DNA of 64,000 bases from the NCBI GenBank assembly GCA_963696385.1, contig CAVOKF010000002.1:1-64000 (forward strand), given 5' to 3'. Origin of the DNA: an uncultured delta proteobacterium. Lineage in GTDB: Bacteria; Myxococcota_A; Polyangia; Polyangiales; Polyangiaceae. The number at the start of each line of letters is the position of its first letter. Position 1 is the stretch's first letter. The position numbers and the translations under genes were made by a program. The notes under the pieces are model-generated. The model did no database searches, was not told where the DNA came from, and worked only from the letters and a program-made list of their open reading frames with translations. Positions 1 to 27,042 of the stretch are shown piece by piece.

Positions 1-1
1 C

Positions 2-598
2 GCGACGCTGTTCGCGTTGCTGGACACGGCCGTGGCGGACGCCCGGATCGGCGCCTGGACTTCGAAATACGAGCAGAAGTTCTGGCGACCGATCACATCG
101 ACGAACGCCAACAGCGACGGAAGCGTGACCAACGACTACGTCGTCTTTCATTCCTTGGCGGCGACACCCTCGCATCCGTCGAACACATCGGGACATAGCG
201 CGACGGCGGCCGCGGCGGCCGAGATTCTCCGGGCCTATTTCGGCGACAAAGTCCACGCGGATGGGAGCCCTGTCACGCTGGGGTCGCTGGCTTGGCTCGT
301 CGGGACCAACGACGGCACGGGCAACGTCACCACGCGGTCGGTTTCCACGTTTACGCAGATCCAGCTCGAGACCGGCGCAAGCCGGCTCTATCTCGGCGTG
401 CACTACGGATACGACAACTTGCAGGGGCAGCTTCTCGGTCTGGAGGTCGCGGACGCGATCCTGCGGTCGCGCGATCCCGCGGCGCAAGGCCTGAGAGCCC
501 CGGACTCTCCAGCCTCCCTGTTCAACCTGGAGCGAACGCTCTTGGCGCGACCGGATCTGTACGGGCTCTATGGGAAGGACACTGGGCCGCGGCGGTGA
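2..598 (+). CDS. Vanadium-dependent haloperoxidase / PAP2-superfamily protein, C-terminal part (5' end outside window)
   Basis: Motifs SKYEQKFWRP, PSHPSNTSGHS and SRLYLGVHY match the three PAP2/VHPO active-site segments. Confidence 0.8.
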   Translation, partial: ATLFALLDTAVADARIGAWTSKYEQKFWRPITSTNANSDGSVTNDYVVFHSLAATPSHPSNTSGHSATAAAAAEILRAYFGDKVHADGSPVTLGSLAWLVGTNDGTGNVTTRSVSTFTQIQLETGASRLYLGVHYGYDNLQGQLLGLEVADAILRSRDPAAQGLRAPDSPASLFNLERTLLARPDLYGLYGKDTGPRR

Positions 599-721
599 TG
601 GCCAGGCCGCCTCCAGTCAAGCCCGATTCCGACTGCCATGGCTGTCGCTCACCCTCTCACGCAGTCATGGCGACCCGCGGCGAGTAGGCGTCTGGAGGGC
701 GTCCCCTCGCGTCCGGAGGCG

Positions 722-1555
722 ATGCTCCACGGGCTGCTGCAAGTCGCGTGCGCCATGTGCTTCATCGGTCACGGTGCGTGGGGGGTCCTCACCAAGGCGG
801 GATGGCTGCCTCTTTATGGCGCGTTGGGTATCTCCCCGTCGGTGGCTTGGAAGACCATGCCCTTCGTCGGGGCAGTGGATATCACGCTGGGTGCGGCGGT
901 ACTGGTGTTTCCTTGCCGAGCGCTCCTCGGATACATGGTTCTGTGGACTCTATTCACAGCGCTCTTGCGGCCATGGGCTGGCCTGGGGTGGTGGGAGTTT
1001 TTCGAGCGCGCCGGCAACTATGGACCCCCCCTCGCCCTTCTCGTGGCGGCGAGCCAACCAAGCGTTCGTTGGTTCCAGCGGATCGAGGCCCGACCCCTGC
1101 GGCCCGCGGCGGTTGGCCGGGTGGCATGGGTTCTTCGGGTGTCCATTGCGCTTCTGTTGCTCGGTCACGGGGGGTTCGCACGGATTCAGGAAAAGAGAGT
1201 CCTCATCGACCACTGGCAGTCGATCGGGGTTCCTGCCGGCCGGGTGTTCTTGCACTGGCTCGGCGGGATCGAAATGGCGGTGGCCCTCGCGGTCTGCTTC
1301 TGGCCGTCGCGATTTCTCCTGTTGGGAATCGGCACATGGAAGATCGCGAGCGAGCTTCTTTACCCGATTTCGGGTCGTCTCAGGGACACGTGGGAGTGGG
1401 TCGAGCGCGGCGGAGATTACCTATGTCCGTTGGCGCTCCTCGCCGTCTTGGCTCTGCTGGACCGACACACGGCGAGCGACAGCGTAACGGCCGGGCGCGC
1501 CGTCGCCACGCCGGAAACGGCGCCGACGCCCTACCCATCCGGCCTGCATCGTTAG
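722..1555 (+). CDS. Membrane protein, DoxX-like, with internal duplication
   Basis: Several hydrophobic helices; two similar halves (FIGHGAWG...EFFERAGNY / LLGHGGFA...EWVERGGDY). Start could be 638. Confidence 0.6.
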   Translation: MLHGLLQVACAMCFIGHGAWGVLTKAGWLPLYGALGISPSVAWKTMPFVGAVDITLGAAVLVFPCRALLGYMVLWTLFTALLRPWAGLGWWEFFERAGNYGPPLALLVAASQPSVRWFQRIEARPLRPAAVGRVAWVLRVSIALLLLGHGGFARIQEKRVLIDHWQSIGVPAGRVFLHWLGGIEMAVALAVCFWPSRFLLLGIGTWKIASELLYPISGRLRDTWEWVERGGDYLCPLALLAVLALLDRHTASDSVTAGRAVATPETAPTPYPSGLHR

Positions 1556-1622
1556 CCTGGACACGTGGGAAGGGCGTTCCGTCGCCCCATTCGTCCGGAG
1601 TGCGTCACGAAGGAGAACGACG

Positions 1623-2575
1623 TTGGAAACGCGAAAATTGGTTCGCTGGCCGTGTCGGTGGTCGGGCTGGGGTGCAACAACTTCGGCGTGCGACTCGACC
1701 CGGCGCGCACGGCGCGAGTGGTCGACGCCGCGATCGATGTCGGAATTACGTTCTTCGACACGGCCGATCGCTACGGCGAGACGCGTAGCGAGGAGTATCT
1801 CGGGCGGGCCCTCGGCGAGCGCCGCAAATCCGTCGTCGTGGCGACGAAGTTCGGCTCGAAAGTCGATGACTCCCGGCAGGGCGCAAGGCCCGAATACGTG
1901 CGACGTGCGCTGGAAGACAGCTTGCGGCGCCTGGGAACGGATTGGGTCGATCTGTATCAATTGCACCGTCCGGACCCCGGCGTTCCGATCGCCGAAACGC
2001 TGGGAGCGCTGAACGATCTGGTCGCTGCGGGAAAGGTGCGCGAGATTGGGTGTTCGAACTTCACGGTGGAGCAGATCCGATCGGCGGAGGGCGGGCGCCC
2101 TCCGAGCGCTGCGCGGTTCGTCAGTCTCCAAAACGAGTACAGCTTGCTCCACCGGGAGCCGGAGCGAGCCGTTTTGGCAGAGTGCGTCGCGCGCGGTATG
2201 GCGTTTCTGCCGTATTTCCCACTCGCAAGCGGCCTGCTGACGGGCAAGTACCGGTGTGGAGAGGTCCCGCCCGCCGGAACGCGTCTGTCGGATCCGGCTG
2301 CACGATTCGCGACGAGGTTTCTGAACGAAGCGAGACTCACCCTTTCGGACCGGTTGGCCGCGTTCGCGGCGTCGCGGGGTCATACCCTGTTGGAATTGGC
2401 GCTTTCCTGGCTGGTCGCACGACCCGGCGTGGCTTCGGTGATTCCCGGCGCCACGACGCCGCAGCAAGTGCGATCGAACGTCGACGCCGCACGCTGGGAG
2501 CTCACCGGCCCCGACCTCGTTGAGGTGGATCGGCTGACGACGTCGCTCGACGCGGCATCGACGCACGCAGCCTGA
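1623..2575 (+). CDS. Aldo/keto reductase (apparent 1-nt frameshift just after the start)
   Basis: GLGCNNFG, FFDTADRYG, ATKFG, DLYQLH, PYFPLASGLLTGKY. AAGGAG precedes TTG at 1623 (METRK), which joins the main frame (IGSLAVSVVG) if one A is added in the A-run at ~1634. Confidence 0.9.
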
Positions 2576-2688
2576 GGTTACGACGACCGGCGGTGGCTGT
2601 CGTCCGACCTTGCGTATGCGTGTCCTGTATGATAGACGCGGCGACGGGCAAGGGCGCGCGCCGCGCGACCGAAGCGAAAGGTGAGAAC

Positions 2689-3411
2689 ATGAGTCGAGCA
2701 GAGAACAGTCTCGGTCCGGAAGCCGTCGCGTTCGTCAAGAGGGCCACTGAGGAGGCCGAGCTCGCGTTTCGAGTCTTTCGCGAGACGGGGACGATCACCG
2801 CCAATGGGACCGTGGGGTTCGTCGAGCGCATCCCGGGGGAGAGCAAGTTTGTCGCGATCCATGACCCGGGCCCCTTCGAGCGCGGGAAGGCGCTCGTGCC
2901 CCGCGTATTTGGCTTCGACGGCACCGCCTATCTCGGCGAGGCGGGTGGGGGCGGCCAGGGCCGCTACTCGAAAATCCTCGAGCAGCACCCCGACATCACG
3001 ACCGTTTCGCACGTCCATTCGCCGTATTTGGGTGCGTGGGCGCAAACCCAGCGGACCTTGCCCATTCGCTACGTACCTGTGCAGCGGTATCTTCTCAGCC
3101 GCGAGATACCGGTCTACTTGGATCGACGCCAGGCCGAGCAGGACTTCATTCTCGATCGGCTTCAGATCGATCCGCACACTCCGGCCATTCTGGAGGCGAA
3201 CGGAGGCGCGACGGTTTGGGGCAAGGGCGGTCTGCGCAAGACCGCCGAGTTCATTCTGATTCTCGAAGAAGGCGCGCGCCTTCAGCTCCTCGCCGAGAGC
3301 CTTGGTGGGTCGCGCGACTACGGTCCCGGGGTCCTGGCGCAGCAGTTCAAGATGAGCGGGTTGACCGAGCAGGCGCGCGCCTTAGGCTTCTTGCCGCATG
3401 CCGGCCATTGA
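2689..3411 (+). CDS. Class II aldolase/adducin family protein
   Basis: GTITANGTV, HPDITTVSHVHSPY motif; ~240 aa. Confidence 0.75.
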   Translation: MSRAENSLGPEAVAFVKRATEEAELAFRVFRETGTITANGTVGFVERIPGESKFVAIHDPGPFERGKALVPRVFGFDGTAYLGEAGGGGQGRYSKILEQHPDITTVSHVHSPYLGAWAQTQRTLPIRYVPVQRYLLSREIPVYLDRRQAEQDFILDRLQIDPHTPAILEANGGATVWGKGGLRKTAEFILILEEGARLQLLAESLGGSRDYGPGVLAQQFKMSGLTEQARALGFLPHAGH

Positions 3412-3506
3412 CCGAGAGCGTCGACGCTTTGAGCCTGGGTCCGGATCCGAAGATCGGGCCGTGACCACGAAACGACCTCCAAGGTTTCTCGATCGGAGAA
3501 AAATCC

Positions 3507-4577
3507 ATGACCGCGTTGGACACCCTATGGTTCACCCGCTGCCCCGTTCCCACGGCCACAGGCCTGGCCTACAAGCTTGGCTGGCTCGATGACGAGTTCA
3601 AACCAGACGGGATTCGGGTTCGAACCTTGCAAGATGCAGGCGGCGAGCTCGCCCGGCATCATTACGACCACGAGCTGCCAACGCTGATTCGCGAGGGCGG
3701 CAATCTTCTTGCTATCCCCGCGAAGGCGCAAGGAGCCCCGTCGCGGCTCGTCGGCCTGACATGGATCGACGAGTGGCAGTCGATCCTCGTGCGGCCCGGC
3801 GAAGCCATAACCTCGCCGGAGCACTTGAAAGGCAAGCGACTCGCGCTACCTGCCTTTCGTGCCTCCGACCTCGCCGAAAATCGCCGTGGTCGCAGCATTG
3901 CGCGAGGCATGAGCCTCGCGGGCTACAAGGGCGCGCTCGCGTCGGTCGGCCTGACGCTCGACGACGTTCGACTCGTCGAGGTCGGGCGCGGTGCTTCCGA
4001 CAATCGGCGCGACGGCCTCGGCGGGATCTGGGAGGGGCTCGATCCGCTCATCAAGGGCGAGGTCGACGCGGTCTACGTAAAGGGCGCTTCGGCGGCGGAT
4101 GCCGCACGCCGCCGTGGGGCCGTCGTCGGGATCGACCTCGATCGGCTTCCGGAACGCCGCTTTCGCGTGAACAACGGGACGCCGCGCCCCATCACCGTGC
4201 ACGAGAGCCTTCTGGCCGACCACTTCGACCTGCTTGTGCGCTTCCTCTACCAGACTCTTCGTGCTGCCGAATGGGCCAAGACCAACGTCGAAGGAGTTCA
4301 CAAGGTTCTGCAAGGTGAGACGCGCGCCAGTTCGCAGGGGGTCGAAGAGGCCTATCGCGGCGGCTTTCATCTTGCGCTTGCGCCGGACCTATCGAGCGAG
4401 CGCGTCGCGCTTTTCCGGCAGCAGAAGGACTTTCAGCTCACCTACGGTTTTCTCGATCGCGACTTTGATTACGATGCATGGATCGACGATCGACCCCTCC
4501 GGGCGGCGCAGGAGCGACTGCGGGCGCGCGCGGCGTCGAGAGGGCCTGTGCCGGAAAGTCAGGACCTCCGAGTCTGA
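3507..4577 (+). CDS. DszB-like desulfinase / sulfonate-binding-fold protein
   Basis: N-terminal WFTRCPVPTA plus HYDH...IREGGN, resembling the DszB Cys/His/Arg/Gly catalytic positions; no signal peptide. Confidence 0.75.
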   Translation: MTALDTLWFTRCPVPTATGLAYKLGWLDDEFKPDGIRVRTLQDAGGELARHHYDHELPTLIREGGNLLAIPAKAQGAPSRLVGLTWIDEWQSILVRPGEAITSPEHLKGKRLALPAFRASDLAENRRGRSIARGMSLAGYKGALASVGLTLDDVRLVEVGRGASDNRRDGLGGIWEGLDPLIKGEVDAVYVKGASAADAARRRGAVVGIDLDRLPERRFRVNNGTPRPITVHESLLADHFDLLVRFLYQTLRAAEWAKTNVEGVHKVLQGETRASSQGVEEAYRGGFHLALAPDLSSERVALFRQQKDFQLTYGFLDRDFDYDAWIDDRPLRAAQERLRARAASRGPVPESQDLRV

Positions 4578-4623
4578 GACGGCCGGTCGACGGGTTCCGC
4601 CCTGTCGGCGGCGACGCGCAGCC

Positions 4624-5079
4624 TCACAATGGAATGTGGCTGCCGATCCCGAGTTGGCGCGTATCGAGCCGGATCGCTCGCCTCGCCAGGAGCGCCGACC
4701 CGCCGGCGAGATTCACGGTGTCGTGCAGCTTTCCCACGGCAAAGAGCGACGTTGCGCCGCCGTCCAGGGCCGTCCGAAAGACCTGCAATGCGGACACGAC
4801 GGTGGCCCGTGTGTTCGGTTCGTCGAACGTCACCGTGTACACGGTCGCGTGGCGGGTCAAAGGCGAGGGATCGCTGTGGTGCCGCGGTAGGTTGCGAAAT
4901 AGTGTCTGCATGCCCGCTCGATCGTGATCGAGCCACACCATGTCGCGCCGAATCTCTGGGGCGTACGCCTGGAGGATGTAGCGAAAATCGGCATCGCAAA
5001 GGCTCAGAAAGCCTTCGAAATCGAGGTCGTCCAACAGAAGGCACGATCGGTACACGAGCTCTTCGACGACCGTTCTCAC
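4624..5079 (-). CDS. msmB: Methanesulfonate monooxygenase-like hydroxylase small (beta) subunit
   Basis: Ring-hydroxylating beta fold (ELVYRSCLLLD...AYAPEIRRDMVWL...LPRHHSD...LDTRQLGIGSHIPL); GTGA overlap with the alpha-subunit stop. Confidence 0.75.
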   Translation of the reverse strand: MRTVVEELVYRSCLLLDDLDFEGFLSLCDADFRYILQAYAPEIRRDMVWLDHDRAGMQTLFRNLPRHHSDPSPLTRHATVYTVTFDEPNTRATVVSALQVFRTALDGGATSLFAVGKLHDTVNLAGGSALLARRAIRLDTRQLGIGSHIPL

Positions 5080-6275
5080 GGGCCGCCTCGCTCGGCAAAC
5101 GGGTCCGAAGCCGAACGACCCATGCGCCGGCTCCACTCGGCGTAAAAGTGGCGCATTCCGCCTTCGTCGTGGATGGTCATGCCCTCTTCTCGTGCGTGGA
5201 TCAGCCAGCGAACGTCGGTCCCACCGTCACGCAGGGCCGTCCCTTGGCCCGTCACGGCGAGCAGATCTTCATGCAGGTTGCGACCGAAGGGTCCCCATAT
5301 GGCATTGTGATCGCGGATGCGAAGAGCGCGTTCTTCCCGAGAGTCCCGGGCCAACCCGAGACCTCGGAGCTCGATCATCGTTTCGTTGGTTCCGAGCGGG
5401 ATGGCGGTATCGATTCGAAGCACGGACGTGCGCAAGTTGAACGTCATGCCCGGGAAAATATCGACGAGGACCCACCCGCCGGCCGCAAGGCCCGGCCAAC
5501 CGATGCGCTCCTCACCGCCTTCGTACTGGTCGTACTTCACCTGCATCGACCCGACCGTCGCGTGTCCATTGGGAAAGGGCACGTACTGGCGTTCGAAGTA
5601 CCCCGGTTGCTGCATCCCGGTCACGCGATTGAAGTAATGAATGAAGTCGTGATAAAATTCGCTATTGGTATCGTGCCACAATTTGTAATTCGTGCGCACG
5701 ATGACTTGCTGGTAGTGAAATACTTCGAGCGGTTCGGCCCAGTGCGCAGCCAGCACGCCGAGCGCGTCGCCGAGAAACTCGCGCAGCCCGGGCCCCTCGT
5801 CGCTCACGTTCACCCAGACGAAGCCCCCGGGTCCCGTCTCCGATCGCACGGCCCGCAAGCCGACGTCGCGTGGATCGAGCCGGTCCTGAAAACCCTCTTT
5901 GCGCCGTGAGATCCCCGTGCAGTTGCCGCGGCAGTCGAAGCTCCACGCGTGAAAAATGCACGACAGGGTCCGAGCACTCCCCGCCGGACGATGGACGAGC
6001 ACGTTTCCTCGGTGCGGACAGATGTTGTAAAAAGTGCGGATCTGCCCGTCGTCGCCGCGGACCACGACCAAGTTCCTGCCGCCCGGATGACGGAACGTCC
6101 GGTAGTCGTAGGCGCGCGGAAGCTCGCTTTCGTGGCACGCGAGGATCCACGCATGCCCGAAGATTTTGTCCTGTTCTTCTCGAAAGATCGCTTCGTCGGT
6201 GTAGAGGCGGCTGTCCACGTAGTGCGTGCGGGGGAACTTCGGGCGCTCGGCCCACTGGGCGGCGTTTCGCGGCAC
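5076..6275 (-). CDS. msmA: Methanesulfonate monooxygenase-like Rieske hydroxylase large (alpha) subunit
   Basis: Rieske CPH-x17-CIFH, mononuclear Fe motif NSEFYHDFIH, WGPFGRNLHED; N-terminus (V)PRNAAQWAERPKFP is MsmA-like; GGAGG before GTG at 6275. Confidence 0.8.
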   Translation of the reverse strand: MPRNAAQWAERPKFPRTHYVDSRLYTDEAIFREEQDKIFGHAWILACHESELPRAYDYRTFRHPGGRNLVVVRGDDGQIRTFYNICPHRGNVLVHRPAGSARTLSCIFHAWSFDCRGNCTGISRRKEGFQDRLDPRDVGLRAVRSETGPGGFVWVNVSDEGPGLREFLGDALGVLAAHWAEPLEVFHYQQVIVRTNYKLWHDTNSEFYHDFIHYFNRVTGMQQPGYFERQYVPFPNGHATVGSMQVKYDQYEGGEERIGWPGLAAGGWVLVDIFPGMTFNLRTSVLRIDTAIPLGTNETMIELRGLGLARDSREERALRIRDHNAIWGPFGRNLHEDLLAVTGQGTALRDGGTDVRWLIHAREEGMTIHDEGGMRHFYAEWSRRMGRSASDPFAERGGP

Positions 6276-6675
6276 CTGAAACCTCCGGAGGCGATCCACG
6301 CGTACGATAGCATCGCGAGGGCGTTAAGCATCGCTTCCCCGAGGCGCGAACGCTGGCACGCGCGCGAGTCATGGCCATCCCCATTTTCCCGGGCTTGAAG
6401 ACCCGGCGGGGAAGTTGGCCGCCCCGCGCCCGCGAGCGGAGCTTCCCAGTGGCCGTTCGACGTCCCGCATGATAGACAGCGCGTCTGGGTCATGCCGGGT
6501 CCCGCGCCACGAGCCGCCTCGTTGCCGGGCGGGGTTCCGTCCGGATGGGCGGCTGGATCGGCTCGAACCGGCGGGCAGGGCGGAAAAAAGTAGCGCAGGA
6601 GACCCGTCGGGTCCGGCCGTCCCCACCGCGCACGATCAGGGCACCTCACGGACGAAGGGAGACCGCAAGGCCACG

Positions 6676-8424
6676 ATGGACGACAGCATCACGGACGCGG
6701 ACATCGTAGTGGTCGGAGGGGGCAGCGCGGGCTGCACCGCGGCCATCCGTGCGCAAGAGCATTTGCCGCGGGGCCGTGTCGTGCTCCTGGAGAAAGCGCA
6801 CATCAAACGCAGCGGCGCCATCGCCATCGGAATGGATGGCTTGAACAACGCAATCATCCCCGGTCACGCGACCCCCGAGCAATACGTAAAAGAGATCACG
6901 ATGGCCAACGACGGCATCGTCAATCAGGAAAGCGTGCTCGCCTACGCGCAGAAGAGTTTCGCGATGATTCAGAAGCTCGATCGCTGGGGCGTAAAGTTCC
7001 AGAAGACCGAGACCGGCGACTTCGACGTCAAGAAGGTCCACCACAACGGAACGTATGTGCTGCCCATGCCGGAGGGCTACGATCTCAAGAAGATCCTCAC
7101 GCGCCTCATCAAGCGCGCCGGCGTTCGCATCGCCAACCGCGTGATGGCGACCCGCCTGTTGACCGAGCGCGGCCGCGTCGCGGGCGTCTTGGGTTTCGAC
7201 GTTCGAGACGGGCACTTTTGCGTGATTCGCGCCAAGACCGTCATCTTGTGCTGCGGCGCGTCCGGGCGCCTCGGCCTGCCCGCTTCGGGATACCTCTACG
7301 GGACGTACGAGAACCCTGCCAATGCCGGGGACGGCTACTCGCTGGCGTATCACGCGGGCGCCGAGCTCACCGGCATCGAGTGCTTTCAGATCAACCCGCT
7401 CATCAAAGATTACAACGGTCCTGCATGCGCATACGTGACGGGACCGCTCGGGGGTCATACGGTCAACGCGCACGGTCACCGGTTCATCCAGAGCGATTAC
7501 TGGAGCGGGCAGATGATGCTCGAGTTCTATCGGGAGCTTCATTCACCCAACGGGCCCGTTTACCTGAAGCTCAATCACCTCGCCCCCGAGACGTTGACGG
7601 AAATCGAACGGGTGCTCCACCGAACCGAACGGCCGAGCCGCGGTCGTTTTCACGAGGGCCGCGGGACGCACTACGCGGACGACCTGGTCGAGATGCACAT
7701 CTCGGAGATCGGGCTGTGCAGTGGCCACAGCGCGTCGGGTGTCTGGGTCAACGAGCACGGCGAGACGACTGTGCCGGGTCTGTACGCGGCGGGAGACATG
7801 GCGTGTGTTCCGCACAATTATCTTCTGGGCGCCCTTACCTACGGCGAGATCTGCGCGGACCGCGCGCTCTCGTACATCGGCGGCGTGGCCGAGCCGGCAC
7901 TCGACGCGGAGCAGGTCGAGCGCGAGCGGCTGCGGCTGCTGAAACCTCTCGGCCGTGCAACAGGCATTCCGCATCACCAGTTCGAATACAAAATACGACG
8001 GCTCGTGAACGACTATCTGCAGCCTCCCAAGACGGCCGCGCGACTGGGCATCGGTCTCTCGCATTTCATGCGCGCCGAGGAGGAGCTCGAGCAGGTGGGC
8101 GCGGCGAATCCGCACGAACTCATGCGCGTCATCGAGTGTCACTTCATTCGTGATTGCGCGGAGATGGCGGCGCGCGCCTCGCTTTTCCGTACCGAGAGCC
8201 GCTGGGGACTCTACCATTACCGGCTGGACTACCCCGAAATGAACGACGATCAATGGTTTGTCCACGTGAACGTGGCCAAGGGACAGGACGGGCGAATGCA
8301 GCTTTTCACGCGGCCTGTGGCGCCGTACGTCGTTGCCCTGAGCGACGACGAAATGAAGGGCTATCACCGGCTGCGCATCGCGGCCCCCGCCGCGCCCGTC
8401 GAACGACGAGGAGCCGAAGCGTGA
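6676..8424 (+). CDS. FAD-dependent oxidoreductase, AprA/SdhA superfamily (AsfA-like)
   Basis: VVVGGGSAG FAD motif, RSGAIAIGMDGLNN, GLYAAGD, RTESRWGLYHYRLDYP. Confidence 0.85.
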   Translation: MDDSITDADIVVVGGGSAGCTAAIRAQEHLPRGRVVLLEKAHIKRSGAIAIGMDGLNNAIIPGHATPEQYVKEITMANDGIVNQESVLAYAQKSFAMIQKLDRWGVKFQKTETGDFDVKKVHHNGTYVLPMPEGYDLKKILTRLIKRAGVRIANRVMATRLLTERGRVAGVLGFDVRDGHFCVIRAKTVILCCGASGRLGLPASGYLYGTYENPANAGDGYSLAYHAGAELTGIECFQINPLIKDYNGPACAYVTGPLGGHTVNAHGHRFIQSDYWSGQMMLEFYRELHSPNGPVYLKLNHLAPETLTEIERVLHRTERPSRGRFHEGRGTHYADDLVEMHISEIGLCSGHSASGVWVNEHGETTVPGLYAAGDMACVPHNYLLGALTYGEICADRALSYIGGVAEPALDAEQVERERLRLLKPLGRATGIPHHQFEYKIRRLVNDYLQPPKTAARLGIGLSHFMRAEEELEQVGAANPHELMRVIECHFIRDCAEMAARASLFRTESRWGLYHYRLDYPEMNDDQWFVHVNVAKGQDGRMQLFTRPVAPYVVALSDDEMKGYHRLRIAAPAAPVERRGAEA

Positions 8425-8705
8425 GCGAAATCGACCATCGTGAGCGTGTCAAATCCGATCAGGCCAAGCGCATCGGAAATGCCCAGACGTCGGGACGATT
8501 CGACGTTCCGGTCGTGGTCGACCTCACCAAGTGCATCACCGGGTGCCGCATCTGCATCGACTCCTGTCCTGTCGACTGCCTCGCCGTGAATCCGGAGACG
8601 CACAAGGCCCACATGAAGCACGACGAGTGCTGGTATTGTTTGGCGTGTGAGCTCGACTGTCCGAAGGACGCGATCGTCGTGAAGATTCCATTTTTGCTGC
8701 GATAG
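8421..8705 (+). CDS. 2x[4Fe-4S] ferredoxin (AprB/AsfB-like)
   Basis: CITGCRICIDSCP and CWYCLACELDCP; GTGA overlap with the flavoprotein gene. Confidence 0.9.
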   Translation: MSEIDHRERVKSDQAKRIGNAQTSGRFDVPVVVDLTKCITGCRICIDSCPVDCLAVNPETHKAHMKHDECWYCLACELDCPKDAIVVKIPFLLR

Positions 8706-8707
8706 CC

Positions 8708-9697
8708 ATGGCTGTCGAAACGTCCCGCGACGCCATCCTCGAGAGGCTGCGAGATCCGGATCCGACCGTCCGGCAGCTCGCGCTCATCGAGCTCGAGGAC
8801 CTCGCATTCGAAGACGAGGAAACCGAACTGCTGGATGCCGTCGCACGGCGGATCGACGACCCGGACGATACGGTTCGCGCGCTCGCGGTCGCCCGGCTCG
8901 AGGAGCTCGGCGACCCGCGCGGTGTGCCCGCTCTGATTCGCGCCCTGGAAGACGCGGTCGAGGACGTCCGACGCGCGGCCGCCGCGGCCCTGCGCGATCT
9001 ACGGGGCGAGGCGGTGGGGTCGCTGCTCGTCTCGGCACTCGATCGAGCCGGGCCCTCGGCACGCGTTGCCTTGATCGTGGCGCTCCGCGAGCACAAGGAC
9101 GGACGCGCGCTCGGCGCGCTCGCTCTCGCCACGCGTGATCCGTCGCCGGATGTTCGGCGAGAGGCGGTCATCTCGCTCGGGTATTTGCGAAAGCCCGACA
9201 CGATCGAAGTGCTGCGCGCGTCCTTGCACGATTCCGAGCCGACCGTGCGTCGGGTCGCGGTTGGGGCGCTCGCATTCTTCCGCGACTCGGCCCTTCACGC
9301 GGATTTCGTGAAGGCGTTGGAAGACTCCGATTGGCAGGTGCGCCGCGAAGCCACCCTCGTGCTCGGGCGCATTCGTTCTGCCGAGGTACAGCCCGGTCTG
9401 GTCCGCGCGCTCTCGGACGACTACTGGCAAGTCCAGAAGGAGGCCGCCATCGCCCTCGGACACGCGGGTGCGCAAAGCGCGATTCCGGTCCTCATCGATT
9501 TGCTGGCGAGCGAAGTGCCCGACCTGCGCAAAGCCGCCGCCGGCGCCCTCGGCGAACTGTCCGCGGCGCAGGCCGTGCCCTCCCTCGAGTCCCTCTCTGG
9601 GAAGGACGCGGACGCCGAGGTGCGCAAGGCGGCCGTGCGGGCCCTTCGTGCCATTTCGGAGTCCGCCTGCCGAAGCCACAATCGCTTCCCCTCGTGA
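8708..9697 (+). CDS. HEAT/PBS-lyase repeat protein
   Basis: Repeated L-x-D-x3-VRxxAxxALG units throughout. Confidence 0.9.
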   Translation: MAVETSRDAILERLRDPDPTVRQLALIELEDLAFEDEETELLDAVARRIDDPDDTVRALAVARLEELGDPRGVPALIRALEDAVEDVRRAAAAALRDLRGEAVGSLLVSALDRAGPSARVALIVALREHKDGRALGALALATRDPSPDVRREAVISLGYLRKPDTIEVLRASLHDSEPTVRRVAVGALAFFRDSALHADFVKALEDSDWQVRREATLVLGRIRSAEVQPGLVRALSDDYWQVQKEAAIALGHAGAQSAIPVLIDLLASEVPDLRKAAAGALGELSAAQAVPSLESLSGKDADAEVRKAAVRALRAISESACRSHNRFPS

Positions 9698-9722
9698 CGT
9701 TCGGACGGCCCGCCGGCGTCGA

Positions 9723-10049
9723 TCAGTCCCCGGCATCGTCGCCGCTCGACGTGTCGGTGGCCGCATCACCGGACGGCGCCGCTGCGTCGCCGGAATCGGC
9801 CTGTGCTCCCGCATCCGCCGCGTCCTCCGCGGCCGCATCCCCGGAGGGTGCCGCCGCGTCGCCGGAATCGGTCTGTGCTCCGGCATCCGCCGCGGCCTCG
9901 GCGGCCGCGTCGTGGGCCGTTGCGTCGGCGTGTGCGTCCGAGCTCGCGTCGGGCGGCAACGGCAGGGTGTTGTCGTCGCCCTGGCAGCCCGAAAGCATAG
10001 CGGCGACGACGGTCAAAGCGGACCATCGCAAAACGAAGGGTAAGGGCAT
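9723..10049 (-). CDS. Small low-complexity lipoprotein
   Basis: Lipobox MLSG-C then D/A/S/G-rich tail; lies right downstream of the porin gene. Confidence 0.6.
   Translation of the reverse strand: MPLPFVLRWSALTVVAAMLSGCQGDDNTLPLPPDASSDAHADATAHDAAAEAAADAGAQTDSGDAAAPSGDAAAEDAADAGAQADSGDAAAPSGDAATDTSSGDDAGD
9759..9902. repeat. 72-bp tandem duplication (24 aa) inside the lipoprotein gene
   Basis: Units begin ggccgcatc at 9759 and 9831. Confidence 0.85.
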
Positions 10050-10090
10050 CGTCGTCTCCTTGGGGTCGAGCCAGTGCCGTCTCGCAGGCC

Positions 10091-11706
10091 TCAATAGACG
10101 ACCTGCGCGCGAAGAAAGATGATGTTTTCGGCCTCGCGATGGCCGATCGCCAGCTCCGCCGGCGTGCTGGCCCCACCCTGAAACTCGGTGTGATCCCAGT
10201 TGACCACGAACTTGGCGTTGTCGCTCCAGTACCAGTTGATCCCGGCCGTGACCTCCGTCGCCCCGTGAACCGATCCGGTCGGCGATGCAAAGTTGGGGAA
10301 TGCGTCGCGATCGATGCCAAGGTGACCCACTCGGCCGGCAATCTCGAGCGCTCCGAAATGGCCCGCCGCCGGCTCGACGGGCGTTTCCACGTGGACAAAG
10401 TCGTAGGATGCCTGCGCGCCGAACAGCAGGAAGGTGGCCTGGGCCTGGTACGCGTGGTTGCTGACCCAGGTGTTGGCGTAGCCTGCGCGCCCAACCTCCT
10501 GATCGGAGATGTAGTACTCGCCGAGGATGCCGAGCGGGCCGATGGCCTCGTACAAGTACGCGCCGTAGCGGTTGTGGGGGCCGTTCGCGACGACGGTGTT
10601 CGCATAGTTGGCCGTCGTGCCGGACGCGGCCGCAATGTAGGTGAAGTCGTTGATCTGTCCAGGGGTCTTGTATGCGGGAGTCGATGCCGGGTTGGTGAGC
10701 GAGGTATTGGTCGGGTTTCCGTGCACGCGCCCGAAGGTCGTGGAGACGCCCACGAAGAGTCGGCCGAGCAACTGGGGTCGGAGCAGTCTGAAGGGACGAA
10801 AGTAAGCCCGCCCTGCAAACTCCTTCGGGCTGTCGTTCGCGAGGTCCGCGCTGCCGTTGTCGGGCACCCCGTTGAAGATGCCGCCCGCATAGCCGAAGAT
10901 GCCTTGGAAGACATCGCCGTGGACCATGGCCCCGACGTCTCGATTCGGCGTGAGCAGCGTCGGCAGGCCGAACTCCACGAACGACAGGTTGGACGTCGGC
11001 TGCAAGCGCTCGAGGCCGAATGGCGGACGGAACTTGCCGAATCGAAACCTCAAGGCGTCGTCCAGATCGAGACCCAGGTAGGCATCCTGCAGAACGGTCG
11101 TTCCGCCTCCGAAGTCGGGGTTGACGAGGAACGACACGCCGTACGGCATGCTTCCCTCGATGTAGGGCTGGGCGCGCCGAATGAGAAATGTGTTGATTTC
11201 GGGACGCTGCGTGTTGTCAAACCAAAAGCGCCCATCGGCTTGAACCAGGGCTCGGAAGCGAATTTGCCACTGCTTGTCGTGGGAGCTGAGGCCGAAACCT
11301 CCCGGTCCGGCGGCAACCGAGGCCGGATCCCCGGGCCGCCCTTGGCGGTCGGCGTGACGCGCAACTCGCGGACTTCCGGTGCGGCTCCCGGCGGCGTCTC
11401 CGGAGCCGCGTTCGGAGACAAGACGACCGGGGCCGACTGCGGGGCCGCAGGGCTCTCCAACGCCGAGGGCAAGACCGGCACGGCCGAACTGCCCTCGGTT
11501 GTGGGCCTCGTTCGAGGCGGTTGCGCCGGTGCGACGTCAGGCGGCTGTTCCGGCCCTGGGGCTTGCGGTGCCGCCGCGGCGGTGCCGGACGAAACCGGCG
11601 AAGGCAGGGGCGCCGAAGCCGAGGCGGCCGCGCTCTGGGCGTGCGCCGGCTCGATCGTCGACCAAGCGAGAGTGAATGCCATGAACATCAAAAAAGAACG
11701 TGTCAT
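10091..11706 (-). CDS. Phosphate-selective porin OprO/OprP family (one apparent frameshift at ~11330)
   Basis: Signal peptide MTRSFLMF...AHAQ, Pro-rich linker, then FRALVQADGRF, LQDAYL, GKFRPPFGLERLQ, GINWY, C-terminal RAQVVY; frames join at a G4 run. Confidence 0.85.
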
Positions 11707-12172
11707 TCGGATTCCCCAGGACGGCAAGGGAGCAACGGTCGGAAAGCGAAGACCCGGGCGACGCAAACGCATGCCGCGTACCGGCCGAGGCCTCGCAAGG
11801 AAGCATCCGCTATAACAGACACGACGATCGATCGCCAAGAGGGATCGAACTCCCGGCGTCGACAACCAGGCCGGTCGCCAACCTCACGGGTCACCCGCGT
11901 CTCCTTCAAGAGCGCCACGAGACAAGAGCCACGAGATTTTCCGTGCACGACGGAAACGGAAAGGCTCCAAGTCCATCCGTGCATGGGGCCATCACGATGC
12001 GAGAGTCGACACCCTCGGCGTGAACGGTCCAGTCGTGACAAGGACCGCGGCGCACGCGCTCGAGCCTCGACCCGATCGCAGTGGGCTCGGAAACCAAGTC
12101 CAGTCTATAAGACCTGGCGAGGCACACCGCCGTTCGGCCGTGGTCTCCACGTCGAAAGGGCCGGAACCGATC

Positions 12173-12613
12173 ATGAATCATTTCACCCCCGTCGCATCGT
12201 CGCTCGGCGGTCTCTTGCTGGGCGTCGCGTGCTCCCTCCTTTTTGTCGCCAACGGCCGCATCCTCGGCATCAGCGGGATCCTCGGCGAAATTCCGTGGGT
12301 CACCGCAGACGAGCGGACGTGGCGCCTCGTGTTTCTCGCGGGTCTACTCACCGGCGGTTTCGCCCTGAGGCTCGTGGATCGATCGACCTTGGCATTCGCG
12401 TCCGAGCAAACGGCCGCTGTCGCGATTGTGTCGGGGCTGCTCGTCGGTTTCGGAACGCGCCTCGGCAACGGGTGCACGAGCGGCCATGGACTGTGCGGGA
12501 TCGCACGCCTGTCCAAGCGCTCGATCGTCGCGACGGGGGTCTTCATGGCGACGGGTGCGGCCACCGTGTTCGTCGTGAGACACGTGTTTCATCTCGGCGG
12601 GGGCGTATCGTGA
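12173..12613 (+). CDS. YeeE/YedE family sulfur-compound transporter subunit
   Basis: NGRILGISG, GLLVGFGTRLGNGCTSGHGLCG. Confidence 0.9.
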   Translation: MNHFTPVASSLGGLLLGVACSLLFVANGRILGISGILGEIPWVTADERTWRLVFLAGLLTGGFALRLVDRSTLAFASEQTAAVAIVSGLLVGFGTRLGNGCTSGHGLCGIARLSKRSIVATGVFMATGAATVFVVRHVFHLGGGVS

Positions 12614-13074
12614 TTCGGCTGGCCGTCAGTTACCTGAGCGGGGTCCTCTTCGCCATCGGCCTCGGCATCTCCGGCATGACGCACCCGTCCAAGGTGTTGG
12701 CCTTCCTCGACTTCACGGGCGCATGGGACCCGAGCCTGGCCTTGGTCATGGCGGGCGGCCTGCTCGTGAACTTCGTCTTCTTTCGGCTCGCCAGACGCAG
12801 AGGGGCGCCCCTTTTTGCACCCGCCTTCGCCTTGCCGGCCGCGCACTTCGTCGACGCATCGCTCGTCGGCGGCGCTTGCCTCTTCGGCATCGGGTGGGGA
12901 CTTGGCGGGTTTTGCCCCGGCCCGGCGCTTGTTTCCGCGGTCACCGGCGAGACTCCCGTTCTTGCCTTCGTCGGTTCCATGCTCCTGGGCATGACCGTTT
13001 TTGACGCGTTCGAGAAGCGCGCAAGTTCGAAAACGCTCGAGGCACGGCCTAGACCTGGCCTCGAGCCGCGCTAG
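12610..13074 (+). CDS. YeeE/YedE family partner subunit
   Basis: GLGISGMTHPSKVLAFLD, WDPSL, FGIGWGLGGFCPGP; GTGA overlap. Confidence 0.9.
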   Translation: MIRLAVSYLSGVLFAIGLGISGMTHPSKVLAFLDFTGAWDPSLALVMAGGLLVNFVFFRLARRRGAPLFAPAFALPAAHFVDASLVGGACLFGIGWGLGGFCPGPALVSAVTGETPVLAFVGSMLLGMTVFDAFEKRASSKTLEARPRPGLEPR

Positions 13075-13970
13075 CGGGGTGAGCCGGTGGCCATCCGACG
13101 CCGGTACGCCTCGACGAAGTCGGCGACCGCCCGGCTCCCCGCCGCGAACGACTTCTGGGCTTCTTCGTGCAGCAGCATCAGCGCTTCCATCTTGAGGGCG
13201 TTCGCGCGGTCGTCGTCGACAATCGCCGTCAGGGATCGGGGACGAGGCAGGTCGACGTCCAACACGGCTCGGACCCGCGTGGGGATGTGGCTCATCACGA
13301 GCAGCCGATCGGCGAGAAAGATGGCCTCATCGATGTCGGTCGTGACAAACATGTGGGTGGGACGCGCTTCCTCCCAGAGCCCGGCGTAGTACTCGAGCAT
13401 CAGTTTTTTGGTCATGGCGTCCAAGCCGCGGAAGGGCTCGTCGAGAATCATCACCGACGGCTTGTTGATCAGGGCTCGGGCCAATTCGGCCCTGCGTTGC
13501 ATGCCCCCCGAGAGCTGGGAGGGGTACTTCGCGCGGAACGCCCCTAAGCCGACCTTGTCGATCAGGCGCGAAGCGACGTCTTTCACCAAAGGGGTGCATT
13601 CCCCGCGAGCCTTCGGGCCATACAGGACGTTGTCGGTCGTCGTCATCCACGGGAACAGCGCCGTCTCCTGGAACATCACGAGCCGATCGTGTCCCGGTCT
13701 GTCGACGCGCTTTCCGCCGACGAGGATTTCGCCACGCGTCGGCTTCTCGAAGCCTGCGATCAGGCGGATCAGCGTGCTCTTGCCCACTCCCGACGGGCCA
13801 ATCATCACGGTGAACTTGTTTCGATCGATCGTGAACGAGCACCCCTTCACGACCTCGCGAGCCGCGCGACCGACCCCGTAGGTCTTGTCGACGTCCCGGA
13901 CCTCGATCTGGGCCGCCTCCGCGGCAACGCTCGAAGGCGTCCGATGAACCGCGCCCGTACGCTCGAGCAT
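13071..13970 (-). CDS. ABC transporter ATP-binding protein (TauB/SsuB-like)
   Basis: GPSGVGKST, LSGGMQRR, ILDEPF; H-loop reads VTTD. Confidence 0.9.
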   Translation of the reverse strand: MLERTGAVHRTPSSVAAEAAQIEVRDVDKTYGVGRAAREVVKGCSFTIDRNKFTVMIGPSGVGKSTLIRLIAGFEKPTRGEILVGGKRVDRPGHDRLVMFQETALFPWMTTTDNVLYGPKARGECTPLVKDVASRLIDKVGLGAFRAKYPSQLSGGMQRRAELARALINKPSVMILDEPFRGLDAMTKKLMLEYYAGLWEEARPTHMFVTTDIDEAIFLADRLLVMSHIPTRVRAVLDVDLPRPRSLTAIVDDDRANALKMEALMLLHEEAQKSFAAGSRAVADFVEAYRRRMATGSPR

Positions 13971-14848
13971 CAGCGCACCGCGAGCCAGGGGGTAAGGCTC
14001 GATGCAAGCCGGCGCACGACGGCGCTCGAGAGGGTGCCCGCGATGCCGATCGAAAGCATTCCCACGACAATCTGCGGATAGGACCCGCCGACGTACGAGC
14101 TCCAGATGAAAAAGCCCAATCCGCCACCGGACGCCGCCGAGCTGCCTCCACCGCCGCCGGAGATCATCTCGGCCGCTACGACCACCTCCCACGTGATGCC
14201 GATGCCGACCTCCATCCCGACCGCGAGAGACGGCAGGACTCCCGGCAGGATGAGGCGCCGGAAGACGTTCCAGCGCGAGGCGCCCATGGAACGCGCCGCC
14301 TGCAGGAACCGGACGTCGATGGCACTCGCCCCACCGAGCACGTTGATGACGATCGTGTAGAAAGCACCCAAGAAAATGACGAAGTCGATCGACAGCTCTT
14401 GGGTAGGCCAAAAAATGATCGATGCGGGCACCCAGGCCAGCGGCGGAATCGGACGCAAAAGCTCGAAAACGGGAAATGCGATGCCACGAAACACCGGCAG
14501 CGTCGCCATCAACAAGGCAAACGGAACCCCCACACCGACCGCGGCGGTGAAACCGATGAGGACCCGGCCACCGCTCAGGACCCAGCTTTGCCAATACCCT
14601 CGATCGCCGATCAGTCGACCCCACGCGATCCATACGGCGCTCGGCGCCGGCAGATGGCCGATCCACGGCAGGGGGTGGCCAAGCCAGGTCGCACGGCTGG
14701 CCCCGAGCTGCCAGACGACGAGGACCACGCAAAAGGACACGAGCGCACGACGGTGGGCGCGGGACACGAGGGCCGTAGAAGGCCGCCTCGCACGGCGGCT
14801 TCCGGATGGGCGATCCGGCGGAACGGTTGCGATGGCGCCGACGGTCAC
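13970..14848 (-). CDS. ABC transporter permease (TauC/SsuC-like)
   Basis: LRPIPPLAWVP, AARSMGA, VVVAAEMI. Confidence 0.9.
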   Translation of the reverse strand: MTVGAIATVPPDRPSGSRRARRPSTALVSRAHRRALVSFCVVLVVWQLGASRATWLGHPLPWIGHLPAPSAVWIAWGRLIGDRGYWQSWVLSGGRVLIGFTAAVGVGVPFALLMATLPVFRGIAFPVFELLRPIPPLAWVPASIIFWPTQELSIDFVIFLGAFYTIVINVLGGASAIDVRFLQAARSMGASRWNVFRRLILPGVLPSLAVGMEVGIGITWEVVVAAEMISGGGGGSSAASGGGLGFFIWSSYVGGSYPQIVVGMLSIGIAGTLSSAVVRRLASSLTPWLAVR

Positions 14849-14852
14849 AAGC

Positions 14853-15697
14853 CTAGCCTTCCCGTTCGCCGAGCTCGAAGGCACGCCGGGCCTCCTGCTG
14901 TACGGTTTCCGCCGTCTCCCGCACGAGCTCACGGTAACGCCGGGTCCCGAGGACGCCCGGGTCGCGAGGGTGCGGAATGTCCACTTCGAGAATTTTTTGG
15001 GCCGGCACGGTCTTGATGTCATCACAACCACCTTGTGCCCAAGGAGGATCGCCTCCTCGAGATCGTGCGTAATGAAAAACATCGTGACCTGATTTCGAGC
15101 ATACATTTGGAGCAATGCATCGTGCATGACCGACTTCGTCAGTGAGTCCAAAGCGCGATACGGCTCGTCGAGCAGGAGCACGGTCGGGTCGTTCATTAGC
15201 GCCCGCACGATTTCGATCCTGCGCTTCACTCCGGACGACGTCTGCCCGGGATAGGCGTGCTCGTAGCCGGTGAGGCCGGCATCCGCCATCCTCTGGCGGG
15301 CCTTGTCGTAGGCTTCTGCGCGGGTCATGGTCTTCTGGACCATCGGTCCGAAGGCGACATTCTCGAGGTTCGTCTTCCACGGGAACAGCGCGCCGTTTTG
15401 GAATACGACGACGCGGTCGGGGCCCACGTCCGCCTGGCTCTGGCCTGGCCCGCAGAGCACCCTGCCGTCCAGGGTGATCGCCCCGGCCGTCACGCTGTGG
15501 AAGCCCGCGATGCTCTTGAGCAGTGTCGTTTTGCCGCAACCGGAGGGTCCGACGACGATGCAGATCTCTCCAGCCGCGATATCGAGCGAACAGTGGTCCA
15601 CCACCAGAACCCGTGCGCCGTCCGGATCGTAGACCTTGACGACGTCGTCGATCCGGATCGCGCCCCGGCGCGCGCTGGAGATCGCCGGGGCGATCAT
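14853..15697 (-). CDS. ABC transporter ATP-binding protein (frameshift in A6 run at ~14995)
   Basis: GPSGCGKTT, LLDEPY, ITHDLEEA; C-terminus ILEVDIPHPRD continues in the adjacent frame. Confidence 0.85.
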
Positions 15698-16566: not shown

Positions 16567-16587
16567 GTTCTTCGGGTTCCGGTGTTC

Positions 16588-17787: not shown

Positions 17788-17947
17788 GGATCACGCCGGG
17801 CGATGACGTTCGAATCGCCGACGCGAGCAGACGTCTCATATAGTAGACACGCTGTCAACCGATCCAGCGGACCCGAGCGGCGGGACCGTCCCTCTGCGGC
17901 GTTCGGCCCTGCAACGGGCTGCGCCCCGAAAAAAATGTTCGCCGCTT

Positions 17948-25132: not shown

Positions 25133-25424
25133 CTCCGACCCCTCATCGATGACTTCTTCGCGTGGGTCGAGCGACACCGCGCCCTTCTGGCCGCCACGCG
25201 CGGGCTGCTCGCTTCATCACCGATTTTGTCTCGAAGAACCGAACGCCTCCGACGAGGTCCCGCGGCGGTCGACGACAAAACCGACGTCTTGATCCGCGAG
25301 CTCGAAGCCCAGCATGGGGATGCGCGCCGATCGCTGCGTCGCCTGCCTCCTCGCCTGCCGCGCTACACCCCCCCGAGCAGGCCGCCGAGGTGCCGTTTTG
25401 CCCCGCCGTGATAGATTCTCGCGC

Positions 25425-25610
25425 ATGAACTCGAGGCGTCTCAACGGAAGCAATGGCACGACGCGCAAGGGCACCAAGGCGCCCAAGCGCCGGACAGGCC
25501 TCCCGACGAAGGCGCAGCAAGCCGCGCGTGCGAAGATCCTCGCTGAGGCTGGGTTCACGGCAACGCCAGAGGAGATCGAGGCGACCGAGCGAGAGCTGCG
25601 CCGCGGATGA
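25425..25610 (+). CDS. Putative antitoxin
   Basis: 61-aa ORF with ATGA overlap onto the PIN gene. Confidence 0.55.
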   Translation: MNSRRLNGSNGTTRKGTKAPKRRTGLPTKAQQAARAKILAEAGFTATPEEIEATERELRRG

Positions 25611-25984: not shown

Positions 25985-25989
25985 CCGGT

Positions 25990-26215: not shown

Positions 26216-26333
26216 CCTTACGCGTACCATTTTTAGTACGTCCCGCAAGGTCCGTCGCGTGCCGAACGAGTTTTTGGCCACCGCCGGCTCTCGCGGCAAC
26301 CTCGACGGTACGCATGCGGCGTGCGGGCGCTCT

Positions 26334-27037: not shown

Positions 27038-27042
27038 AATAA

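Follow-up and report, generated by a model that had tools for sequence, protein, structure and literature searches.

A reductase-less Rieske oxygenase linked to an AsfAB-type flavoprotein–ferredoxin–HEAT module in Myxococcota: a candidate electron donor in proposed sulfonate utilisation

Classical Rieske-oxygenase chains comprise a reductase of the ferredoxin–NADP+ reductase (FNR) or glutathione-reductase type, with or without a [2Fe-2S] or [3Fe-4S] ferredoxin, and an oxygenase that stands without such partners raises the question of where its electrons come from. The question is posed by a locus of an uncultured delta proteobacterium of the Polyangiaceae (GCA_963696385.1; 6.94 Mb, 8 contigs, 96.4% complete), within the first 64,000 nucleotides of contig CAVOKF010000002.1 (C2:1-64000, hereafter the window). 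Two genes for a Rieske oxygenase related to MsmA and MsmB of methanesulfonate monooxygenase lie there back-to-back with a trio of genes for a flavin adenine dinucleotide (FAD) flavoprotein, a small ferredoxin, and a HEAT-repeat protein. Comparison with related loci (numbered L) and genomes (numbered G) showed that, in one Myxococcota clade of this oxygenase, the trio stands in place of the usual reductase and Rieske ferredoxin, which makes it a candidate electron donor.

The MsmA-like alpha (large) subunit of the oxygenase is encoded at 5076–6275 on the minus strand (399 amino acids, aa; Pfam Rieske and Ring_hydroxyl_A) and the beta (small) subunit at 4624–5136 on the same strand (Pfam Ring_hydroxyl_B and SnoaL_4). 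The alpha start was placed at 6275, where all 11 aligned homologues entered the longer open reading frame (ORF; 5076–6299, minus strand) at its residue 9. The true beta start probably lies near 5076, overlapping the alpha stop, as suggested by homologues of 153 aa. Neighbouring genes were scored by targeted tblastn in the best 80 of 361 genome relatives of alpha, the set to which all counts of alpha loci out of 80 refer, and beta directly followed alpha in every one of them. Hydroxylase alpha and beta subunits are encoded jointly, as in MsmA and MsmB, and Pfam domains together with a match of the DszB-like neighbour to PDB entry 2de2 bore out the preliminary description of a two-gene unit convergent with a DszB-like gene.

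The label msmAB given in that description was an over-call. The Rieske motif of alpha is CPH-X17-CIFH, with the 17-residue spacer in all 12 sequences of alignment A1 (the window alpha and 11 homologues), and not the CXH-X26-CXXH of MsmA. According to PMC4433239, a 26-residue spacer is present in every organism proven to grow on methanesulfonate, and it is automatic annotation alone that gives the name MsmA to proteins with a short spacer (n = 17) from Methylibium, Methyloversatilis, and Thiobacillus; a literature search found no account of what the short-spacer family does beyond that paper. The best full-length alpha relative outside its own family among 1.84 billion cluster representatives was P0242 (49% identity), which has an X26 spacer and is the nearest X26 representative. 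Alpha relatives are named "methanesulfonate monooxygenase large subunit" by JGI, a label that covers P0242 and also more distant X17 clusters, and "msmA" calls in soil metagenomes mostly mark the short-spacer family rather than proven MsmA. Judged by homology, the oxygenase belongs to the closest sister family of MsmA and is not a demonstrated member. Since the signature of proven MsmA, X26, is missing from alpha, methanesulfonate can only be guessed at as its substrate; a small sulfonate is suggested by the importer and the relatives.

On the plus strand, across a divergent intergenic region (6276–6675; read in the sequence and in alignment A4), lies the gene for a 582-aa AsfA-type FAD flavoprotein of the fumarate-reductase/adenosine-5'-phosphosulfate (APS)-reductase superfamily (6676–8424; Pfam FAD_binding_2 and Succ_DH_flav_C in the frame 6415–8424). 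The ATG at 6676 was read in the sequence, the match to NF006131 (990 bits, cut-off 587) opening at ORF residue 88. The gene for a 94-aa AsfB-type 2×[4Fe-4S] ferredoxin follows at 8421–8705 (Pfam Fer4_7, a 4Fe-4S dicluster domain, in the frame 8154–8705); its GTG start at 8421, within a GTGA that overlaps the flavoprotein stop by 4 bp, was common to all eight Myxococcota homologues inspected, and its eight cysteines were invariant in alignment A3. The third gene, at 8708–9697, encodes a HEAT-repeat protein of 329 aa (Pfam HEAT_2, 243 bits). Pfam and NCBIfam matches with the refined starts confirmed the trio as first described, and because of the refined alpha and flavoprotein starts (6275 and 6676) the gap measures 400 bp, again as described.

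The flavoprotein had 6576 database relatives at E ≤ 0.001. Among the best 80 of at least 595 genome relatives, to which the further flavoprotein locus counts apply, identity was 78–79% to Sorangium loci and 63–68% to loci of Pseudomonas, Burkholderia, Cupriavidus, Variovorax, and Acinetobacter, and asfA has been reported in those proteobacterial genera (accessible text of PMC4267179 and PMC2864759). On the strength of this 63–68% identity, the flavoprotein is a putative orthologue of AsfA of Pseudomonas putida S-313. As in the AsfA pair, a superfamily flavoprotein of about 580 aa is followed by a gene for a 2×[4Fe-4S] ferredoxin, an arrangement found in 78 of the 80 nearest flavoprotein loci; a HEAT gene lay within 6 kb of the flavoprotein gene in 73, the remainder being cut contigs. 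The HEAT domain was fused to the flavoprotein in all nine long relatives, mostly from Streptomyces, and the window's HEAT protein aligned to positions 620–896 of the curated fused model NF010374; the fusions suggest that HEAT binds AsfA. By these matches the trio would be an AsfAB-type module with its constant HEAT partner, a module seen in Pseudomonas, Burkholderia, Acinetobacter, Sorangium, Verrucomicrobiota, Planctomycetota, and Streptomyces. In the flavoprotein tree, proteobacterial sequences formed a sister clade to those of Myxococcota and Verrucomicrobiota, with a Planctomycetota row inside the Myxococcota group. Assignment of the HEAT protein as a deoxyhypusine-hydroxylase-like diiron hydroxylase was considered and dropped, the His-Glu motifs that we take to mark such enzymes being absent from its sequence.

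Partners of the classical type were missing from the genome. On contig C2, no Rieske domain was detected beyond that of alpha and no NAD_binding_1 or Fer2 domain anywhere, in agreement with the earlier observation that the window lacks a Rieske ferredoxin and an FNR-type reductase. In tblastn searches of the genome with the reductase and Rieske ferredoxin of Glaciimonas (not of Methylosulfonomonas methylovora) as queries, neither catalytic domain was matched; the best match to the reductase scored 21 bits, and no Fer2 match was in frame with a NAD_binding_1 match. Seven Rieske domains are present, none of them a small MsmC-like ferredoxin by homology, and two NAD_binding_1 proteins, neither with a Fer2 domain. 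The search for msmC and msmD, beside the hydroxylase or elsewhere in the 6.94-Mb genome, had been named in advance as the test that could overturn the proposed electron chain, and it found neither gene. Among other genomes carrying alpha, G137 and G178 showed no Fer2 match beside a NAD_binding_1 match, and G144 and G205 held some Fer2/FNR fusions elsewhere in the genome. An NAD(P)H-binding domain was not detected in the flavoprotein by Pfam either (FAD_binding_2, Succ_DH_flav_C, and generic FAD folds only), so the putative donor differs from classical chains in this domain and in the 2×[4Fe-4S] type of its ferredoxin.

The distribution of partners across genomes was complementary. In the 80 alpha loci, a Fer2-FAD-NAD reductase directly followed beta in 68 and a Rieske ferredoxin in 61; the 12 loci without reductase were eight of Myxococcota type and four on contigs ending soon after beta. 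Metagenome relatives numbered 307, with the best 80 taken per scan, and pooling three scans and dropping identical alpha sequences and matches shorter than 370 residues left 162 distinct alpha loci. These comprised 128 with the reductase (within 2.5 kb after alpha), nine with the trio, five with neither despite room, and 20 too short. In an alpha tree of 76 rows (all 34 non-reductase rows and every third reductase row), a branch with 99% support in the Shimodaira–Hasegawa-like approximate likelihood ratio test (SH-aLRT) parted two clades. The Myxococcota clade (25 rows) contained nine trio loci, 12 short loci, four with neither, and not one with the reductase; the proteobacterial clade (51 rows) contained 42 reductase loci, eight short loci, and one with neither. 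Three of the four Myxococcota rows with neither (L172, L175, and L180) appear to end where their nearest relatives have the trio. The importer is orthologous in both clades (57–67% identity for the binding protein), and since it is the same in both, only the electron-transfer genes were swapped.

Linkage of the trio was kept through at least five gene orders. The trio is divergent from and adjacent to alpha-beta in the window and L002, divergent from a transporter-alpha-beta operon in L005, L206, and L210, on one strand as alpha-beta-porin-trio in L004 and L011, and convergent beyond the transporter in L003/L173. In L251, and also in L181 and L182, all five genes lie on one strand in the order flavoprotein-ferredoxin-HEAT-alpha-beta; in L251 the HEAT frame ends at 9995 and the alpha match starts at 10001, with an N stretch inside the ferredoxin gene. 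Because the cluster recurs in related genomes and metagenome contigs, it is not a chance juxtaposition. Two readings of these loci were rejected: a HEAT-alpha fusion in L251 (709-aa frame, 9107–11236), as the frame crosses the N stretch and its middle is not HEAT-like, and an actinobacterial origin of L177, suggested by a DUF222 gene, as L177 is 100% identical to L251, which belongs to a metagenome-assembled genome (MAG) of the Myxococcales.

In a sample of 251 genomes of the same class, alpha was found in six and the flavoprotein in five, all five being alpha carriers and none being among the 245 non-carriers. Both genes lay 0.9–6.7 kb apart on the same contig in these five; the sixth alpha carrier was 82% complete, with alpha on a contig of less than 2 kb. 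Because the carriers are kin, this co-occurrence is not an independent count. In one genome (G137:C3:1015386-1020474) the alpha match came in two pieces (residues 2–221 and 219–395) and the flavoprotein contained an in-frame TGA, which may reflect joint decay or an assembly error. Separately, a type 2A encapsulin (SrpI-like) and a cysteine desulfurase were encoded directly after alpha-beta in a Myxococcales MAG (L007:6988-8887) and upstream of the asf operon in Acinetobacter (L137:4348-7225); the presence of this pair at both sites ties alpha-beta and asf to sulfur-starvation loci.

We propose that a Polyangiaceae-type myxobacterium holds an island for sulfonate utilisation between 3.5 and 17.8 kb of the window. 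A small sulfonate would be taken up by way of an anion porin and an MsmEFGH-like importer, and the two-subunit Rieske oxygenase would cleave its C–S bond with O2 and free sulfite. Proteobacteria encode this oxygenase together with an FNR-type reductase and a Rieske ferredoxin (MsmD/MsmC-like); in the Myxococcota clade these two have been lost, and the oxygenase genes are tied to AsfA, AsfB, and HEAT instead. On the likeliest reading, AsfAB is the redox partner, which the HEAT protein would hold together or target, and its pair of [4Fe-4S] clusters would relay electrons to the Rieske centre of the alpha subunit; the direction of this flow, the source of the electrons entering AsfA, and any physical contact between the proteins are postulated. 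It is probable that the trio and the oxygenase serve one pathway, and we assign a probability of roughly 40% to AsfAB being the electron donor of the oxygenase. The preliminary description had offered two roles for AsfAB, feeding electrons to the oxygenase or handling the released sulfite. The first is supported by the complementary distribution and the linkage, the electron transfer itself being extrapolated from the gene context of one clade. A complex prediction for one alpha and the ferredoxin, run without controls, gave scores of 0.00 and 0.00 and spoke neither for nor against the donor role.

Several observations weigh against AsfAB as the donor, and most of them would suit a different arrangement in which both systems share a pathway or regulon and keep their chemistry apart: AsfAB-HEAT would convert an imported organosulfur compound, and the oxygenase, which would carry out a further desulfonation or provide a parallel route served by the same importer, would draw on an unlinked general reductase. 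Every locus with a linked trio belongs to a single clade of the alpha tree, so that the exchange of reductase and ferredoxin for the trio counts as one evolutionary event. The trio is also much more widely distributed than the oxygenase. Neither alpha nor beta occurred in any of the 80 nearest flavoprotein loci, and two complete Sorangium genomes have the trio and lack alpha. The co-occurrence of trio and oxygenase predicted at the outset stood for nine Myxococcota loci and five of the six class carriers; it is one-sided and did not extend beyond that clade. The common asf operon elsewhere (GntR-flavoprotein-ferredoxin-NMT1 binding protein-permease-ATPase-HEAT) includes an importer and no oxygenase, and it is often near sulfate-starvation genes. 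In the flavoprotein tree, AsfA of oxygenase-linked loci was not separated from AsfA of Sorangium and had not diverged in those loci; on the side of the oxygenase, a partner-switch signature was sought in alpha and dismissed, as only four positions discriminate the two clades, all of them conservative.

Individual loci point the same way. In L252 the two are truly unlinked: the contig with alpha is 51 kb long, and the flavoprotein gene is on a different contig of that MAG. L189 encodes alpha, beta, and the transporter, in this order, and no reductase or trio occurs within 10 kb; adjacent are SorA-like and cytochrome c genes, together with another Rieske alpha. Two Polyangiaceae MAGs (L309, G258:C25:163000-182000; L310, G259:C321:5000-24000) encode a genuine X26 MsmA, 51–52% identical to the window alpha, which follows a binding protein-permease-ATPase set beside SsuD-like and acyl-CoA-dehydrogenase-like (SfnB/DszC-type) genes. 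Within 19 kb of this X26 msmAB, msmC and msmD were not found, and the trio was on another contig; these loci count against the donor role, although they can be read in favour of either arrangement.

A general reductase is at hand. The genome encodes a 511-aa fusion of a Rieske domain and a pyridine-nucleotide-disulfide reductase (G000:C7:1281816-1283351), which was also found in 46 of the 251 class genomes, four of the six alpha carriers among them, and which is a possible general rather than specific donor. In the accessible accounts of the solved AsfA relatives (8a8o and AprA), these are substrate-converting enzymes, reductases into which electrons enter through the ferredoxin subunit. On this comparison AsfA is unlikely to be an NAD(P)H reductase, and the route of electron entry would fit an AsfA acting on an imported compound. 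Separate chemistry is only slightly less probable than the donor role; it leaves unexplained, however, why reductase and ferredoxin were lost exactly, and only, in the trio-linked clade, and why flavoprotein, ferredoxin, HEAT, alpha, and beta form a tight operon. Moreover, the fusion reductase was not found in two of the six alpha carriers (G205 and G250), and its gene has a housekeeping context (sigma-70, PhoU, and HSP20 genes).

The second role offered earlier, in which AsfAB would work as a reverse APS-reductase-like enzyme on the released sulfite and replace SoeABC-like proteins, TauE, or SorAB, draws on the kinship of the flavoprotein. Its closest structure was 8a8o_A, the alpha subunit of the APS-reductase-like PAPS reductase MtPAPSR, with AprA also near; the alignment to MtPAPSR/AprA was full-length (221 bits for the single sequence, 270 bits for the profile), and both were nearer than the succinate dehydrogenases. 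The equivalent of AprA Asn74 is invariant in AsfA-type sequences. SoeA-like genes occurred in 22 and TauE in 28 of the 80 alpha loci, none of them of Myxococcota type, and the SorA-like and cytochrome c genes of L189 would also agree with this role. The role is nevertheless weakened, because the equivalents of the R-x4-R arginines of AprA and MtPAPSR are invariant Phe237 and Leu242 in all 12 AsfA-type sequences (alignments to 8a8o_A and 2fja_A); we take these arginines to be AprA residues 260 and 265, as counted on the alignment, and to be catalytic. The flavoprotein stayed below the aprA cut-offs (NF005331, 289 vs. 557; TIGR02061, 175 vs. 642), and the ferredoxin below that of aprB (TIGR02060, 25.7 vs. 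136), its matches to AprB and the MtPAPSR beta subunit being weak. In these features the pair departs from dissimilatory APS reductase and MtPAPSR. No sat or cys genes were detected in the window by Pfam, and the proteobacterial sulfite genes are accessory to a constant reductase.

Genetic data bear on the same point. According to the accessible text of PMC4267179 and PMC2864759, an asfA mutant of Pseudomonas putida S-313 lost growth on aromatic sulfonates only; AsfA and AsfB were needed for aromatic and not for aliphatic sulfonate use, with induction by sulfate limitation (PMC4267179). The mutant is reported to remain able to use aliphatic sulfonates, and these release sulfite too (PMC4267179). 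On balance, a role in sulfite handling is unlikely, the kinship of the flavoprotein to AprA and MtPAPSR and the conserved Asn74 equivalent notwithstanding.

We regard as very unlikely a combination of both roles, in which AsfAB-HEAT would be a redox partner fuelled by the oxygenase's own sulfite. Sulfite would form an N5 adduct with the AsfA flavin and be oxidised in the manner of APS reductase, except that water would take the place of AMP as the acceptor, and both electrons would travel back to the Rieske centre by way of the two [4Fe-4S] clusters. If true, this would amount to an NAD(P)H-free desulfonation (R-CH2-SO3- + O2 -> R-CHO + sulfate) and would explain both the absent NAD(P)H domain and the replacement, by the trio, of the reductase, the ferredoxin, and the sulfite-oxidising genes of the proteobacterial clusters.

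Around these genes, the divergent gap contains a block of about 30 nt (about 6456–6485) that is nearly identical in L002, whose gap is only about 184 bp long, and that may serve as an operator. Its GTCTATCA core resembles what we take to be GntR/HutC-type half-sites; GntR-UTRA regulators precede asfA in other phyla, and none is present in this cluster. A promoter and terminator scan found no sigma-70-like site in the divergent gap, and an Rfam scan of positions 1–20000 found no family at E ≤ 0.1.

Convergent with the oxygenase genes, at 3507–4577 on the plus strand, lies the gene for a cytoplasmic protein that resembles the sulfinate desulfinase DszB and has the fold of a solute-binding protein (PDB 2de2/2de3, E 2e-11). 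The match was full-length with the CPVP cysteine motif aligned, and those to NMT1 and SsuA families were weak. Such a gene was near alpha in one of the 80 loci, the window's own, and does not belong to the conserved module. Beyond the trio, a phosphate-selective-type (OprO/P family) anion porin is encoded in two frames at 10091–11865 on the minus strand (Pfam Porin_O_P), with homologues in six of the 80 alpha loci, all of Myxococcota type. Two small membrane proteins, both conserved in L002, follow on the plus strand, a YeeE/YedE-type protein at 12020–12613 (Pfam Sulf_transp) and a DUF6691 protein at about 12619–13074 (Pfam). The MsmEFGH-like ATP-binding cassette (ABC) importer occupies 13095–17787 on the minus strand, with an NMT1-type binding protein (16588–17787), two permeases, and two ATPases (Pfam); its parts shared 59–73% identity with the transporter encoded after the oxygenase genes of Glaciimonas (L053). 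The stretch from the HEAT gene to the porin operon is very GC-rich and includes, at 9759–9908, a tandem repeat of 72 bp (2.1 copies, 89% matches).

Four peat RNA-library runs (at least 95% likeness) covered parts of the flavoprotein end, the ferredoxin, HEAT, the porin, YeeE, and the importer, one contig spanning 8113–8949. For alpha and beta, cover was limited to a 50-nt piece whose flanks differed; a gap in cover carries no weight as evidence, and the libraries may contain DNA. RNA-library contigs showed one extra base after 11328 (two runs), 14409 (three runs), and 17889 (one run), the extra C after 11328 joining both porin frames and 14409 falling in the overlap of two long importer frames. 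These are probably single-base indel errors in the assembly.

The island, which ends at 17787, is followed by unrelated genes and by mobile-element genes, among them an integrase-core gene, a DDE transposase, and a phage-type integrase at 24050–36348. Another stretch rich in oxygenases, at 40515–48761, encodes an af470-like monooxygenase, an ABC-2 exporter with HlyD, a luciferase-like monooxygenase, and a FAD_binding_3 protein. Because 16 other genomes of the family in the class sample had neither alpha nor the flavoprotein, and because mobile-element genes follow, the island may have been acquired horizontally or the contig mis-binned. The end of contig C1 (G000:C1:407040-412023; L170:7041-12024) is an inverted copy, 99.4% identical, of window positions 633–5709, holding an aldo-keto reductase (AKR), an aldolase, the DszB-like gene, beta, and alpha residues 190–399, where alpha is cut. 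Beside it are genes for a sulfate-type binding protein, a PALP enzyme (CysK-like), and a hexapeptide transferase (CysE-like). The copy may go back to variation between strains, to a true duplication, or to an overlap in the assembly. That the lack of partners stems from MAG incompleteness or mis-binning, or that the oxygenase genes are relics, is most improbable: the gene-free kin and mobile elements, the indels, the inverted copy with its alpha cut at residue 190, and the split alpha and TGA-bearing flavoprotein of G137 would agree with it, but alpha is 66–85% identical across A1 with all Rieske ligands and more than 200 columns invariant, the partner-less arrangement repeats on long contigs of several MAGs and metagenomes, and the genome is 96.4% complete.

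AsfAB has served as a marker for bacterial desulfonation in soils since 1999, and to our knowledge neither its biochemical role nor an oxygenase partner has ever been shown. The combination described here is built from known families, the link of the AsfAB module to an oxygenase being its new part. The Myxococcota clusters provide a natural experiment, with the same oxygenase and importer and with the classical reductase and ferredoxin exchanged for AsfAB-HEAT, and one lineage, with all five genes in a compact operon, offers a defined set for reconstitution. If AsfAB were the donor, it would represent a new class of Rieske-oxygenase partner; otherwise it would be an enzyme in its own right. 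The long-open question of AsfAB thereby becomes directly testable.

Compared with known systems, the island shares with MsmABCD and MsmEFGH (M. methylovora M2, Marinosulfonomonas, and Filomicrobium) a two-subunit Rieske hydroxylase beside an NMT1-type ABC importer, and differs from them in the X17 instead of the X26 spacer and in lacking msmC and msmD. Closer are the short-spacer clusters of Methyloversatilis universalis FAM5, Methylibium, Thiobacillus, and other Betaproteobacteria, in which alpha is 64–71% identical to that of the window and beta and the five-gene importer are orthologous. In contrast to the window, they carry a Fer2-FAD-NAD reductase and a Rieske ferredoxin directly after beta, lack the trio, and often add a SoeABC-like molybdoenzyme and TauE, neither of which is present in the window; the former, a DMSO-reductase-family trio that is SoeABC-like by architecture, and TauE are encoded upstream. 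In two of these clusters a cyclic-nucleotide-binding domain was observed at the C-terminus of the Rieske ferredoxin (L053:12606-13511, L014:12663-13502) and at the N-terminus of the first permease (L053:15004-16389, L014:14802-16166).

The asfRABC locus of P. putida S-313 (arylsulfonate desulfonation) likewise has a superfamily flavoprotein followed by a small 2×[4Fe-4S] ferredoxin in a sulfonate-importer context. Unlike asf loci, the window has no adjacent LysR or GntR regulator, its importer is of the two-permease/two-ATPase type, and a Rieske oxygenase is linked, a linkage not described for asf in the literature searched, in which no paper paired asfA with msmA or Rieske. MtPAPSR (8a8o) and AprAB (1jnr/2fja) share with the AsfAB pair an FAD-containing alpha subunit and a beta subunit with two [4Fe-4S] clusters. 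The window's proteins are set apart from them by Phe and Leu in place of the R-x4-R arginines and by aprA and aprB scores below cut-off, and their genes stand in a context of aerobic sulfonate uptake rather than sulfate activation.

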